A stretch of 7,173 nt of DNA from a virus. Taxonomy: Duplodnaviria > Heunggongvirae > Uroviricota > Caudoviricetes. The notes under the pieces were generated by a model that made no database searches, was not told the origin of the DNA, and was given only the letters and a program-made list of their open reading frames with translations. Below, one piece after another: positions 55-7,173 of the stretch (positions are counted from its first letter, which is position 1; each line of letters starts with the position of its first letter). The position numbers were made by a program, and so were the translations under genes. The DNA lies in the IMG/VR virus record IMGVR_UViG_2687453466_000006; one strand, written 5' to 3'.

Positions 55-798
55 TTACTCCCTGACAGGGTTCGTAGGCCACTCAATATCAGGTGCAGTT
101 GATGTATCAACACGGTTCAGCAACACCCGATATTTTTTCCAGGCTTCCAGCAATGAGGTTTCTTCCTCCGTTGCGATTTCCAGATCTACAGCATCCTGAA
201 GTGGCGCAATATGCTCACTGGCTACCTGCATCAGGCTGTTTTTTGTTTCTTCCGCCTCCCGAATCCGGAACAGTTTTTCTGCTTCTGCATCTTTCACCCA
301 GGCTGTACCGTTCCACTTCTGAAACTCCCCTTCCGGCGATAACCAGGTAACATTTTCCGGTAACGGACCGAGTTCAGAAATAAATAACGCGTCCCCTGAC
401 GCTACGTCATAAACCGTTTTACCCCGATGATCTTCAACGAGATGCCACGATGACTCATCACTGTTGAAAACAGCCACGAAGCCAGCTGGAATAAGGGTGT
501 TGCGCTGCTTATGCTCTATAAAGTAGGCATAAACACCCAGCAGCATTTTGGAATAACCGACACGGGCAGACTTCACCACATTCACCTCACGGATGTAGTC
601 GCTGCCCATCGCATTCATGATGGCCCGCTGAAAGGGCAGTGTTTCCCAGCGCCCTTCCTGGTATGCGGATTCTTTCGGGAGATAGTAATTAGCATCCGCC
701 CATTCAACGGCGGTCTGTGGCTCCGGCCTGAACAGTGAGCGAAGCCCGGCGCGGACAAAATGCCGCAGCCTGTTAACCTGACTGTTCGATATATTCAC
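55..798 (-). CDS. Chimeric prophage-remnant ORF (247 aa): terminase large subunit (lambda gpA-like) N-terminal ~103 aa fused in frame to tail-fibre assembly protein (lambda Tfa-like) C-terminal ~144 aa; probably a pseudogene
   Basis: ORF track 55..798 minus. ATG at 798..796, TAA at 57..55. Residues 1-103 ([18 protein letters not shown]...EHKQRNTLI) match the lambda gpA N-terminus as I remember it; residues 104-247 ([12 protein letters not shown]...[11 protein letters not shown]) match the lambda Tfa C-terminus. Junction at about nt 487-492. The start overlaps the upstream Nu1 gene by 26 nt (773..798), as in lambda Nu1/A. Resembles the adjacent aaaD/tfaD pseudogene pair of K-12 DLP12. Confidence 0.8.
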
Positions 799-2272: not shown

Positions 2273-2557
2273 TTTGTCGCTCCATGCGCTTGCTCTTCAT
2301 CTAGCGGTTAAAATATTACTTCAAATCTTTCTGTATGAAGGTTTGAGCACGTTGGCCTTACATACATCTGTCGGTTGTATTTCCCTCCAGAATGCCAGCA
2401 GGACCGCACTTTGTTACGCAACCAATACTATTAATTGAAAACATTCCTAATATTTGACATAAATCATCAACAAAACACAAAGAGGTCAGACCAGATTGAA
2501 GCGATAAAAACGATAATGCAAACTACGCGCCCTCGTATCACATGGAAGGTTTTACCA

Positions 2558-2968
2558 ATGGCTCAGGTTGCCATTTTTAAAGAAATATTCGATCAAGTGC
2601 GAAAAGATTTAAACTGTGAATTGTTTTATTCTGAACTAAAACGTCACAATGTCTCACATTATATTTACTATCTAGCCACAGATAATATTCACATTGTGTT
2701 AGAAAACGATAACACCGTGTTAATAAAAGGACTTAAAAAGGTTGTAAATGTTAAATTCTCAAGAAATACGCATCTTATAGAAACGTCCTATGATAGGTTG
2801 AAATCAAGAGAAATCACATTTCAGCAATACAGGGAAAATCTTGCTAAAGCAGGAGTTTTCCGATGGATTACAAATATCCACGAACATAAAAGATATTACT
2901 ATACCTTTGATAATTCATTACTATTTACTGAGAGCATTCAGAACACTACACAAATCTTTCCACGCTAA
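2558..2968 (+). CDS. ybcV: Prophage protein of unknown function, YbcV-like (DUF1398 family by recollection), 136 aa
   Basis: The ORF track extends to a TTG at 2435. I call the start at ATG 2558 ([19 protein letters not shown]...), which has GGAAGG 8-9 nt upstream. An in-frame ATG at 2516 has no Shine-Dalgarno element. Confidence 0.75.
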
Positions 2969-3258: not shown

Positions 3259-3552
3259 ATGAAAAAAATGCTACTCGCTACTGCGCTGGCCCTGCTTATT
3301 ACAGGATGTGCTCAACAGACATTTACTGTTCAAAACAAACAGACAGCAGTAGCACCAAAGGAAACCATCACCCATCATTTCTTCGTTTCTGGAATTGGGC
3401 AGAAGAAAACTGTCGATGCAGCTAAAATTTGTGGCGGCGCAGAAAATGTTGTTAAAACAGAAACCCAGCAAACATTCGTAAATGGATTGCTCGGTTTTAT
3501 TACTTTAGGCATTTATACTCCGCTGGAAGCGCGTGTGTATTGCTCAAAATAA
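3259..3552 (+). CDS. borD: Bor outer-membrane lipoprotein (serum-resistance moron), 97 aa
   Basis: MKKMLLATALALLITGCAQQ... has a signal peptide with lipobox ITG|C. I recognise it as near-identical to lambda Bor. It is convergent with Rz, which is the lambda arrangement. Confidence 0.95.
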   Translation: MKKMLLATALALLITGCAQQTFTVQNKQTAVAPKETITHHFFVSGIGQKKTVDAAKICGGAENVVKTETQQTFVNGLLGFITLGIYTPLEARVYCSK

Positions 3553-3583: not shown

Positions 3584-4045
3584 CTATCTGCACTGCTCAT
3601 TAATATACTTCTGGGTTCCTTCCAGTTGTTTTTGCATAGTGATCAGCCTCTCTCTGAGGGTGAAATAATCCCGTTCAGCGGTGTCTGCCAGTCGGGGGGA
3701 GGCTGCATTATCCACGCCGGAGGCCGTGGTGGCTTCACGCACTGACTGACAGACTGCTTTGATGTGCAACCGACGACGACCAGCGGCAACATCATCACGC
3801 AGAGCATCATTTTCAGCTTTCGCATCAGCTAACTCCTTCGTGTATTTTGCATCGAGCGCAGCAACATCACGCTGACGCATCTGCATGTCAGTAATTGCCG
3901 CGTTCGCTAGCTTCAGTTCTCTGGCATTTTTGTCGCGCTGGACTTTGTAGGCGATTGCGTTATCACGGTAATGATTGACCGCCCATGACAGGCTGACGAT
4001 GATGCAGATAATCAGAGCGGATATAATCGCGGTTACTCTGCTCAC
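3584..4045 (-). CDS. rzpD: Spanin inner-membrane subunit (i-spanin) Rz, 153 aa
   Basis: Near-identical to lambda Rz ([10 protein letters not shown]...QKYINEQCR), with an N-terminal transmembrane segment. Start is placed at GTG 4045..4043, overlapping the endolysin TGA stop (GTGA), by analogy with the lambda ATGA overlap. An alternative GTG at 4057 would give 157 aa. Confidence 0.85.
3643..3825 (-). CDS. rzoD: Spanin outer-membrane lipoprotein subunit (o-spanin) Rz1, 60 aa, embedded in the +1 frame of Rz
   Basis: ATG at 3825..3823. [24 protein letters not shown]... has lipobox VVG|C and a proline-rich C-terminus ([15 protein letters not shown]), near-identical to lambda Rz1. Lies entirely within Rz in a different frame. 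Confidence 0.85.
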
Positions 4046-4539
4046 TGTTGCCCCCACAAACAGACTTCACGCTCAATCTCACGACGAGTCATCAGGCCTT
4101 TCCATTGCTTACCGCCAGCGTATGTCCAGCGACGCAGCTGATCACATGCGCCTTTGATATCGCCCTGGTTTATTTTGCGAAGAAGCGTCGATGTTCTAAA
4201 ATTGCCAGCACCCACGTTGTAAACGAATGAGTAAAGAGCGCCGCGCGTTGTTTCCGGTATATCGACTTTGATATACGGGTTAATTTGTCTGGCGACAGTG
4301 GCAAGGTCTTTATTCAAGAGTGCTTTGCATTCTGCTTTGGTATACGTTTTACCGAGCATGATGTCTTTTCCGGTGTGTCCGTGACATACAGTCCATACAC
4401 CAACAATATCTTTGTATGGTATGTAGCTGACACCTTCCAGACCATCGTTACCACTTGGGCCAGTGATTAACACTGATGCTATAGCAATTGCTCCGCCACC
4501 AATAGCAGCAGCAACGGCTTTTCGTAATGATGGAGGCAT
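4042..4539 (-). CDS. rrrD: SAR (signal-anchor-release) endolysin, phage 21 R-type lysozyme, 165 aa
   Basis: ATG at 4539..4537. The N-terminus has a Gly/Ala-rich weakly hydrophobic segment ([18 protein letters not shown]) typical of SAR domains. E35, D44 and T50 are present at the catalytic triad positions of T4-lysozyme-like R21 (by recollection). Start overlaps the holin stop by 1 nt (TAATG). Confidence 0.93.
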
Positions 4540-4754
4540 TATTCACCTCTCGCAGCCTTGCGCTTATCTTCTTTAATCTTGAAATAAAGGTTTGTCAGGT
4601 ACGTCAGCAGGCCAAATACCAGGCTACCCAGCACACCTATTGCTGCCCACTGTGAGGGAGTGACTTTATCTAGCAGCTGTAAAAACCAGTACCCGGCACT
4701 ACCTGCTGAGGTGCCATAGGCGACACCCGTTGTTAACTTATCCATGGATTTCAT
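4539..4754 (-). CDS. essD: Class II holin (pinholin, phage 21 S-type), 71 aa with dual start Met1/Met4
   Basis: ATG at 4754..4752 and a second in-frame ATG at 4745..4743 (MKSMDK...), the S21 antiholin/holin dual-start arrangement. Two predicted transmembrane segments and a charged C-terminus ([13 protein letters not shown]). GAGGTGG Shine-Dalgarno-like sequence upstream. Confidence 0.9.
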
Positions 4755-4863
4755 AACCCCACCTCGCAGACAAAGCGGGTGTAAATTGAGGGAATACTAC
4801 GAAACGTAACAGACTCGGAGTCAGTGAATAACTCAGGTATTGGGTTATCAGCTAATATCGAGA

Positions 4864-4899
4864 CTCAAAAAATGGAAAAACCCGCTCGACGGCGGGTTT
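4864..4899 (-). terminator. Putative intrinsic terminator oriented toward the lysis genes (tR'-like)
   Basis: The minus strand reads AAACCCGC-CGTCGA-GCGGGTTT followed by TTCCATTTTTT: an 8-bp stem with a 5-bp GC core, a 6-nt loop and a U-rich tract. On the plus strand no T-tract follows it. Lies about 110 nt upstream of the holin start. Confidence 0.5.
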
Positions 4900-4943
4900 A
4901 AGCTGTGTGACGAAGTAACCACTCTTAACAGCATAACCAATTT

Positions 4944-4957
4944 TTTACGTACGTAAA
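4944..4957. repeat. Perfect 14-bp palindrome TTTACGTACGTAAA, 7 bp from the IS5 left end
   Basis: Self-complementary by direct inspection. Overlaps a weak sigma70-like candidate on the minus strand (TTTACG, 16 nt spacer, TATGCT). Confidence 0.4.
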
Positions 4958-4964
4958 CCACTAA

Positions 4965-4980
4965 GGAAGGTGCGAACAAG
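4965..4980. repeat. IS5 left terminal inverted repeat
   Basis: GGAAGGTGCGAACAAG; matches the right end in inverse orientation at 15 of 16 positions. Confidence 0.85.
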
Positions 4981-4987
4981 TCCCTGA

Positions 4988-6013
<1,026 letters not shown>

Positions 6014-6144
6014 AAACTGGGGATAACGCCTTAAATGGCGAAGAAACGGTCTAAATAGGCTGATTCAAGGCATTTACGGGAGAAAAAAATCGGCTCAAAC
6101 ATGAAGAAATGAAATGACTGAGTCAGCCGAGAAGAATTTCCCCG

Positions 6145-6160
6145 CTTATTCGCACCTTCC
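6145..6160. repeat. IS5 right terminal inverted repeat
   Basis: CTTATTCGCACCTTCC; reverse complement GGAAGGTGCGAATAAG. Confidence 0.85.
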
Positions 6161-7173
6161 TAGGGGATTTACCTGATGTCACTTTTGAAGAGGCCTGCCT
6201 AAGATGGCTTGAGGAAAAAGCTGATAAAAAATCTCTCGATTCAGATAAAAGCCGGATTGAGTTCTGGCTTGAACATTTTGAGGGTATAAGGCTTAAAGAT
6301 ATCTCGGAGGCAAAGATTTACTCTGCTGTAAGCAGAATGCATAACAGAAAGACGAAAGAAATATGGAAACAGAAAGTTCAGGCCGCCATCAGGAAAGGTA
6401 AAGAACTGCCTGTTTATGAACCAAAGCCAGTATCAACTCAGACAAAGGCAAAGCATCTTGCCATGATAAAGGCCATTCTCCGTGCTGCAGAACGCGACTG
6501 GAAGTGGCTGGAAAAAGCGCCTGTCATCAAGATACCAGCGGTCAGAAACAAGCGAGTCAGATGGCTGGAAAAGGAGGAAGCAAAACGCCTTATTGATGAG
6601 TGCCCCGAACCACTGAAATCTGTCGTCAAGTTTGCGCTGGCAACTGGTCTGAGAAAGTCGAACATCATAAATCTGGAATGGCAACAAATCGACATGCAGC
6701 GACGAGTTGCCTGGGTGAATCCAGAAGAGAGCAAATCAAACCGCGCCATTGGTGTGGCGCTGAACGATACCGCCTGTAAAGTGTTGCGTGATCAAATAGG
6801 CAAGCATCACAAATGGGTGTTTGTACATACCAAGGCGGCTAAGCGAGCAGATGGAACATCAACGCCTGCGGTCAGGAAGATGCGCATCGACAGCAAGACA
6901 TCATGGCTATCAGCTTGTCGTCGTGCAGGAATTGAAGATTTCCGTTTCCATGACCTCAGACACACCTGGGCAAGCTGGCTGATTCAGTCAGGCGTCCCAT
7001 TATCAGTGCTTCAGGAAATGGGCGGATGGGAGTCCATAGAAATGGTTCGTAGGTATGCTCACCTTGCGCCTAATCATTTGACAGAGCATGCGAGGAAAAT
7101 AGACGACATTTTTGGTGATAATGTCCCAAATATGTCCCACTCTGAAATTATGGAGGATATAAAGAAGGCGTAA
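6161..7173 (+). pseudogene. Phage-type tyrosine integrase, 5'-truncated by IS5 (N-terminal arm-binding region and start codon missing); longest ATG-initiated ORF is 6337..7173 (278 aa)
   Basis: The reading frame of ORF 6337..7173 stays open upstream to the IS5 boundary (in-frame stop only at 6115-6117, inside IS5), encoding ...[55 protein letters not shown], typical of an integrase core-binding domain, with no in-frame start codon. The C-terminal catalytic domain is intact: TGLRKSN (box I Arg), HDLRHTWAS (HxxR), [15 protein letters not shown] (Trp and catalytic Tyr). TAA at 7171-7173. Confidence 0.85.

Follow-up and report, generated by a model that had tools for sequence, protein, structure and literature searches.

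The lysis cassette at positions 3584 to 4754 of the window, the 7,173-bp stretch of DNA analyzed here, is the four-gene lysis operon of the cryptic prophage DLP12 of Escherichia coli K-12, and all four of its genes are coding-intact. Judging from the sequence on either side of it, the cassette has lost its regulatory context through an IS5-associated deletion and persists as what is probably an orphaned remnant, since the Q gene and everything else beyond 210 nt upstream of the first lysis gene, in all likelihood including the promoter, have been replaced by a copy of this insertion sequence.

The window was assigned to DLP12 on the basis of both sequence identity and chromosomal position. Over its entire length, it was 100% identical to the corresponding region of strains DH5alpha, NEB 5-alpha, DH1, XL1-Blue and JM109, 99.9% identical to that of ST18, and covered in full at 99.7% identity in S17-1 and the ER strains; at least 80% of it was found in one place in 332 complete genomes. 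The annotation of DH5alpha lists, in this region, an integrase pseudogene, an IS5 transposase, essD, rrrD, rzpD, bor, ybcV, ybcW, ylcI and nohD, together with fragments of terminase and tail-fibre-assembly genes. As in MG1655, the DLP12 locus of DH5alpha is flanked by the tRNA-Arg gene argU and fimZ on one side and by appY and ompT on the other, argU being located just past the end of the window, beyond the intD remnant. The lysis module of MG1655 DLP12 is 100% identical to that of the window at the nucleotide level over the four genes and a 210-nt leader, and has the same neighbors (borD, ybcV, ybcW, ylcI and nohD). Unlike the window, however, MG1655 keeps the full 572-bp intergenic region upstream of essD, an IS5-interrupted nmpC gene (nmpC::IS5), quuD and the early region of the prophage. 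The features of the window relevant to this analysis are listed in Table 1.

Table 1. Lysis genes, upstream elements and integrase remnant, in positions of the window
Feature	Coordinates	Strand	Description	Evidence
rzpD	3584-4045	minus	GTG...TAG, 153 aa	ORF and translation
rzoD	3643-3825	minus	ATG...TGA, 60 aa, out of frame within rzpD	
rrrD (ybcS)	4042-4539	minus	ATG...TGA, 165 aa	ORF and translation
essD	4539-4754	minus	ATG...TAA, 71 aa, MKSM dual start	ORF and translation
essD leader	4755-4964	minus	210 nt, last part of the 572-nt nmpC-essD intergenic region; GAGGTG ribosome-binding site	
Terminator-like hairpin	4868-4899	minus	AAACCCGC-CGTCGA-GCGGGTTT then TTCCATTTTTT	Terminator scans
IS5	4965-6159	plus	1195 bp; inverted repeats located	DDE_Tnp_1 and DUF772 (Pfam)
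insH	5033-6013	plus	Transposase gene of IS5, divergent from essD	Annotation
intD remnant	6160-7173	plus	Codon 51 to stop	PF00589; pseudogene annotation

In agreement with an earlier, sequence-only reading of this DNA, which had described four lysis genes with intact frames and start codons, all four open reading frames were recovered, and their translation revealed no internal stop in the essD, rrrD, rzpD or rzoD frames. The overlaps that it had pointed out were likewise present: a TAATG overlap within GTGAATAATGCC, where the TAA of essD and the ATG of rrrD have one A in common, a GTGA overlap within CAACAGTGAGC, where the GTG of rzpD overlaps the TGA of rrrD, and the embedding of the Rz1 gene (rzoD) in the Rz gene (rzpD). 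All four genes have a Shine-Dalgarno-like sequence in front of them (GAGGTG, GAGAGG, GGGGG and AAGGAG). A second GTG occurs in the same frame four codons upstream of the rzpD start, at position 4057. Homology with the Rz genes of phage 21 and lambda, which begin with ATG, places the start at 4045, as does RefSeq. Profile searches against Pfam returned PF04971 (121 bits), PF00959 (155 bits), PF03245 (181 bits) and PF06085 (72 bits). Because all four scores are several-fold above the gathering cut-offs (26 bits in the case of PF04971), the assignment of these proteins to lysis families is not a matter of chance. The PHROG lysis families agreed with the Pfam assignments, PHROG holin families matching EssD, and none of the four lysis proteins had a match above cut-offs in NCBIfam.

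The S21 holin is known to form small depolarizing pores, or pinholes, as its first transmembrane domain (TMD1) leaves the membrane. EssD belongs to the same S21 family of class II (pin)holins, with the PF04971 profile (Phage_holin_2_1, 'P21 holin S') spanning residues 5-67. Initiation at Met1 yields the 71-residue antiholin form, and initiation at Met4 (start at position 4745) the 68-residue holin form; this MKSM dual start is common to S21, and the annotation of phage 434B, whose sequence is identical here, lists both products. In the hydropathy profile of EssD, residues 36-54 stand out as the one strongly hydrophobic segment, the N-terminal region being weakly so. RrrD, in turn, is a GH24 enzyme with the T4-lysozyme fold (PF00959, Phage_lysozyme). 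The catalytic triad and the SAR domain attributed to it from the sequence were both borne out: residues E35, D44 and T50 are present, Glu35/Asp44/Thr50 being tabulated for both RrrD and R21 (PMC8228626, Table 3), and residues 8-26, which are identical in R21, are hydrophobic (Kyte-Doolittle value of 2.11) and yet consist to 63% of Gly, Ala, Ser and Thr, as is typical of a SAR-like segment. RrrD is identical at 165 of 165 residues to the protein whose crystal structure is deposited as 'Lysozyme RrrD' (PDB 4ZPU), and at 163 of 165 (99%) to R21, of which crystal structures are available (PDB 3HDE, used in this comparison, and 3HDF). This near-identity suggests that RrrD would be released and activated upon membrane depolarization.

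RzpD is the i-spanin (PF03245), with a transmembrane segment at residues 5-23 and cysteines at positions 14, 99 and 152. RzoD is the o-spanin lipoprotein (PF06085), harboring a VVGC lipobox with Cys20 as well as a further cysteine, Cys29. The sequence-only reading had counted two intact lipoboxes in the cassette. That of RzoD is indeed intact, but a regular-expression scan found no lipobox in RzpD, leaving RzoD as the sole match within the cassette; the second lipobox nearby (ITGC, Cys17) is that of BorD, whose gene at 3259-3552 falls outside 3584-4754.

We compared the cassette to that of phage 21 (OL657228), which shows the same gene order, the TAATG overlap, the MKSM holin start and a SAR endolysin with the E35/D44/T50 triad. 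The proteins of the two modules are related to different degrees: R is identical at 163 of 165 residues and Rz1 at 59 of 60 (the exception being P34R), with 95% amino acid identity for Rz and 86% for S. At the nucleotide level, the R genes share 96% identity, whereas the S gene of phage 21 is only 77% identical to essD, with synonymous sites that are saturated. The Rz gene starts with ATG in phage 21 (ATGA overlap) and with GTG in the window (GTGA overlap). Upstream of essD, the leader bears no relation to that of phage 21, in which the gene for a 162-residue Q is immediately followed by pR', the QBE, a terminator and two tRNA genes. Lambda, on the other hand, provides no counterpart for the first two genes, in that no similarity was detectable between its S protein (a class I holin) and EssD or between its R protein (a transglycosylase) and RrrD. 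Its spanins are close relatives of those of the window (149 of 153 residues, or 97%, between Rz and RzpD; 58 of 60 between Rz1 and RzoD), and lambda likewise has an embedded Rz1 gene and bor as the downstream neighbor. RzpD is thus slightly closer to the Rz protein of lambda (97%) than to that of phage 21 (95%). The designation of the cassette as being of the phage 21 type therefore applies to the pinholin and SAR endolysin pair only, the Rz/Rz1 spanins being of a type that lambda and phage 21 share, and the leader being unrelated.

The steps of lysis have been worked out in phage 21 and lambda. By analogy, the S21-type pinholin encoded by the cassette would build up in the inner membrane and, upon triggering, form small pores, and the membrane potential would collapse as a result. 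Presumably tethered and inactive until then because of its Gly/Ala-rich N-terminal segment, the SAR endolysin would be freed into the periplasm, where it would refold and cut peptidoglycan by means of E35, D44 and T50. Finally, the spanin complex made of Rz in the inner membrane and the lipoprotein Rz1 in the outer membrane would be expected to disrupt the outer membrane.

The exact sequence of the cassette also occurs in a viable phage. Phage 434B (OL657227), a derivative of 434 that forms plaques, is 100% identical to positions 3584-4964 of the window, and its annotation recognizes an antiholin, a class II holin, a SAR endolysin, an i-spanin and an o-spanin. Its original Q gene, late promoter and lysis region have been swapped for a DLP12 segment, with which came the Q gene of DLP12, nmpC::IS5 and the intergenic region in full, a regulatory part that is missing from the window. 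Plaque formation by 434B is the best evidence that the very sequence found here is likely competent for lysis. The same arrangement, consisting of a Q gene, a porin gene on the opposite strand, an intergenic region of ~570 bp and S-R-Rz, is found at 96-98% identity in phages mEp332, ev243 and PhiR29_1.

To reach essD in MG1655, one passes from intD to quuD (the Q gene), the oppositely oriented nmpC::IS5 and the 572-bp intergenic region. Alignment of the junctions showed that, in the window, one IS5 takes the place of MG1655 positions 565,829-577,187 (11,359 bp, or 11.36 kb), an interval whose genes include xisD, exoD, emrE, ybcK-ybcO, rusA, quuD and nmpC. Homology to MG1655 upstream of essD ends 210 nt before the ATG, at TTAG, where IS5 starts; on the other side, alignment with MG1655 intD showed homology to resume at nucleotide 151 of the gene, corresponding to codon 51. 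The sequences flanking IS5 are CTAA and CTAG and do not match as a target-site duplication would, so that a deletion or recombination mediated by IS5 is a better explanation than a simple insertion. In XL1-Blue, the deletion and the accompanying IS5 insertion have already been described (PMC11148124). Neither a Q antiterminator gene nor a late promoter was found ahead of the holin gene in the window, whereas MG1655, 434B and the active phages have both. What is left is the leader, which over its 210 nt is 100% identical to MG1655 and phage 434B; the full nmpC-essD intergenic region is conserved in mEp332, ev243 and PhiR29_1. The leader carries, between IS5 and essD and on the essD strand, a terminator-like hairpin followed by a T-run, a candidate for the terminator that Q-modified polymerase would read through; it is conserved in active phages and, according to RNA folding, only moderately stable (positions 4899-4868; stem of about -12 kcal/mol, z = -1.75).

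The position of the promoter relative to the deletion was derived from published primers. The regulatory fragment cloned by Pasqua et al. is described as extending from '-121 to +650', with reference to Rueggeberg 2015. The forward primer maps to position 13754 of L002 and the reverse primer inside essD, and the amplicon length fits. From these coordinates, we infer that the essD transcription start lies near position 13875 of L002, about 524 nt upstream of essD. Given a start at -524, the absence of the forward primer sequence from the window and the end of homology at -210, the deletion has removed the promoter as published, along with 314 nt of leader and with quuD; the sigmaE- and Q-dependent promoter of essD would accordingly have lain in the deleted part. 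A sigmaE-like motif (TGAACTA-N16-TCACT) ends 6 nt before this start; weak as it is (8/12), with matches of its kind occurring at about chance frequency, it is noteworthy only for the coincidence in position.

Motif scans of the retained leader revealed neither a sigma70-like nor a sigmaE-like site on the essD strand, and a sigma70 consensus scan of the same strand from 4700 to 6400, IS5 included, did not yield any promoter-like site. The negative sigma70 results carry little weight, since the scan also came up empty in the intergenic region of MG1655, where promoter activity has been established, and downstream of quuD. The sequence-only reading had spoken of a functional lysis module; for the window, this part of the claim is unsupported, quuD and the essD promoter region being gone and only the 210-nt leader with its terminator-like hairpin being left. 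On the strength of what has been deleted, we consider it fairly probable that the cassette is transcriptionally orphaned and largely silent in the DH1/DH5alpha-type lineage. A literature search for rrrD expression in DH5alpha and for other accounts of the DH1 deletion found nothing useful. Against silence, read-out transcription from the minus-strand open reading frames of IS5 may occur.

IS5 insertions are known to activate neighboring genes, as in the bgl, flhDC and glpFK cases. With IS5 sitting 210 bp upstream of essD and abutting its leader, the element might similarly have rewired the operon by supplying or activating transcription independently of Q and sigmaE. If so, common cloning strains would express a pinholin, a SAR endolysin and spanins, with consequences for traits such as leakiness, vesiculation and transformability. 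We find this improbable, because insH is divergent from essD, no promoter-like site was found on the essD strand between 4700 and 6400, the single sigmaE-like match in IS5 is at chance level, and a terminator-like hairpin stands between IS5 and essD in a strain whose antiterminator gene is gone. The mirror image, namely that these strains behave as naturally occurring regulatory nulls and reproduce the phenotypes published for deletion of the cassette in MG1655, is more likely than rewiring.

No mark of decay was apparent in the K-12 copy when the lysis proteins were compared in a five-way alignment with those of phages. EssD was identical to the holins of mEp332 and ev243, RrrD and RzoD were identical to their counterparts in PhiR29_1, and V35 of Rz was the single residue in the panel to be found in DLP12 alone. 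The GTG start of Rz and the P34R substitution in Rz1 were considered as decay marks and rejected, as PhiR29_1 has both (GTG and Arg34). Among phage-type copies, pN/pS amounted to 0.00-0.04 for rrrD, 0.00-0.09 for essD and 0.2-0.4 for rzpD; values for rzoD were undefined for want of any synonymous difference, and dN/dS could not be calculated for essD versus S21, as 39 of 50 synonymous sites differed and were saturated. Since phage-type copies were compared, the low ratios reflect selection for lysis in phages, not selection in the host, and 'recent' and 'domesticated' are inseparable on these pN/pS data.

The sequence-only reading had taken the retention of an intact lysis module in an otherwise gutted prophage as a sign of either recent decay or host benefit, and had mentioned a report on biofilm and cell-wall phenotypes. 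Such a report is that of Toba et al. (2011), which PMC7918800 cites. As to retention, the window settles neither alternative. The additional gutting is specific to the K-12 laboratory lineage and already published, and is therefore uninformative with regard to selection versus recent decay; and because the deletion is of the laboratory era and confined to the DH1/DH5alpha/XL1-Blue/JM109-type lineage, intactness of the cassette in this particular setting amounts to recency.

For the DLP12 cassette in general, published work reports that the operon responds to environmental stress and is under the control of RpoE, Hha and an antiterminator of the Q type, and that the lysis genes have roles in cell-wall maintenance, biofilm formation and the production of outer-membrane vesicles. 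In line with such roles, the cassette may have been domesticated (Toba 2011, Pasqua 2021), the host keeping it for the benefits of low-level expression in peptidoglycan turnover, curli and biofilm formation and in limiting outer-membrane vesiculation. We regard this as possible but rather unlikely. Deletion of the module in MG1655 reportedly raises vesicle production ~4-fold, which, together with the reported regulation, the low pN/pS of rrrD and essD and the abundance of the cassette type (3,586 of the 5,426 complete genomes of E. coli have 80% or more of it), speaks in its favor; the pN/pS values, however, pertain to phage lysis as noted above, active phages encode the very same proteins as K-12, and the cassette exchanges with infecting phages, as in 434B. 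Moreover, widely used strains have lost the promoter and Q without a noted defect, Shigella has reportedly lost the module, and selection at the level of the host is beyond the reach of the sequence of this window.

Since active phages encode the same proteins as K-12, or very nearly so, the intactness of the K-12 copy does not call for selection in the host. The cassette may simply have been retained without any host function, the time elapsed having been too short for decay or the sequence having been renewed periodically by recombination with incoming lambdoid phages; to this we assign about an even chance. Apart from the near-identity to active-phage copies, with its single private residue, neutral retention is consistent with the mosaic structure of the module, evident from the divergence of S and R in their nucleotide identity to phage 21, with the DLP12-to-phage transfer documented in 434B, and with the piecemeal, IS-driven decay of other parts of DLP12. 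It sits less well with the reports of regulated expression and with the published phenotypes of MG1655 mutants, which suggest some physiological effect. The question of host benefit rests on these MG1655 phenotypes, and the window adds nothing to it.

As the cassette, its proteins, their structure, their regulation and this deletion have all been published, the window is of little scientific weight in itself, and its significance is mainly practical. The DLP12 phenotypes described in MG1655 and BW25113, namely those relating to biofilm and curli, peptidoglycan turnover, vesicle yield and Hha toxicity, are not to be assumed in strains bearing the deletion, i.e. DH1, DH5alpha, XL1-Blue, JM109, S17-1 and their relatives, which lack Q and the upstream promoter region although their lysis genes are present and annotated. 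For these strains, annotation pipelines present essD, rrrD and rzpD as intact and do not signal the regulatory loss; rzoD, for its part, is annotated in MG1655 and missing from the PGAP annotation of DH5alpha.

In the window, 11,359 bp of DLP12 present in MG1655 (565,829-577,187), including quuD, nmpC, rusA and emrE, have been swapped for an IS5 element. The element is flanked by CTAA and CTAG and lacks a target-site duplication, a junction structure suggesting that the lesion arose through IS5-mediated deletion or recombination. The same IS5/DLP12 lesion has already been published for strain XL1-Blue (PMC11148124).

The entire ~570-bp region separating nmpC from essD in MG1655 was found to be kept in the active phages mEp332, ev243 and PhiR29_1, in which the lysis genes are separated from Q by an inserted porin gene. 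An invariant CTATAAT lies ~190 nt 5′ of a terminator-like hairpin in MG1655 and all three phages; the position of the late promoter or Q-binding element of the 127-aa Q type is annotated in no record. Alignment of the leaders upstream of essD (A7) further revealed a 16-bp insertion, CTGCTTTTTTGCGATA, in ev243 and PhiR29_1 (columns 527-542), located after the terminator-like hairpin but ahead of the ribosome-binding site of essD, at approximately window 4783-4784. In contrast, the DLP12 and mEp332 leaders are devoid of this insertion.

Within the lysis cassette, the embedded rzoD gene is annotated in the MG1655 record but is missing from the DH5alpha RefSeq (PGAP) annotation, where rzpD is present (7584-8045 of the DH5alpha locus, L001). 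Automated annotation readily drops embedded o-spanin genes of this kind. At codon 34 of rzoD (window 3724-3726, minus strand), a single C-to-G difference from phage 21 and lambda leaves Rz unaltered (Thr, ACC to ACG) but replaces Pro34 with Arg within the proline-rich stretch of Rz1. PhiR29_1 carries the same Rz1 replacement, and the change is thus not private to K-12. Four codons 5′ of the GTG annotated as the rzpD start is a second in-frame GTG (4046-4057, minus strand); because it coincides in part with the G-run presumed to be the Shine-Dalgarno sequence of this gene, it is probably not used. Convergent with rzpD across a 31-bp gap is borD, an arrangement of bor and the Rz gene shared with lambda and phage 21. 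The sequence-only reading had spoken of two lipoboxes in connection with the cassette, the second of which was probably that of borD.

Features of the window and of the MG1655 locus
Feature	Position	Strand	Details
Terminase/tail-fibre-assembly ORF	55-798	-	247 aa; N-terminus lambda-A-like terminase large subunit, C-terminus tail-fibre-assembly
Rfam IS009 (RF02111) match	98-296	-	227.8 bits; gathering score 117
ybcV (DUF1398) open frame	2435-2968	+	177 aa from TTG at 2435
borD, Bor lipoprotein	3259-3552	+	Lipobox ITGC, Cys17
rzoD	3643-3825	-	
IS5	4965-6159		Junctions 4964/4965 and 6159/6160
MG1655 nmpC-essD intergenic region	13827-14398 of L002 (MG1655 locus)		Counterparts in mEp332, ev243 and PhiR29_1 (L005, L006, L007)

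The 247-aa fusion ORF, in which GpA_ATPase spans residues 47-102 and the C-terminal part corresponds to Caudo_TAP, is the known aaaD/tfaD scar, left by a deletion that took out every head and tail gene. The IS009 match falls within its tfaD-like tail-fibre-assembly coding remnant. Finally, the ybcV product is shorter in RefSeq (136 aa), with a start at 2558.
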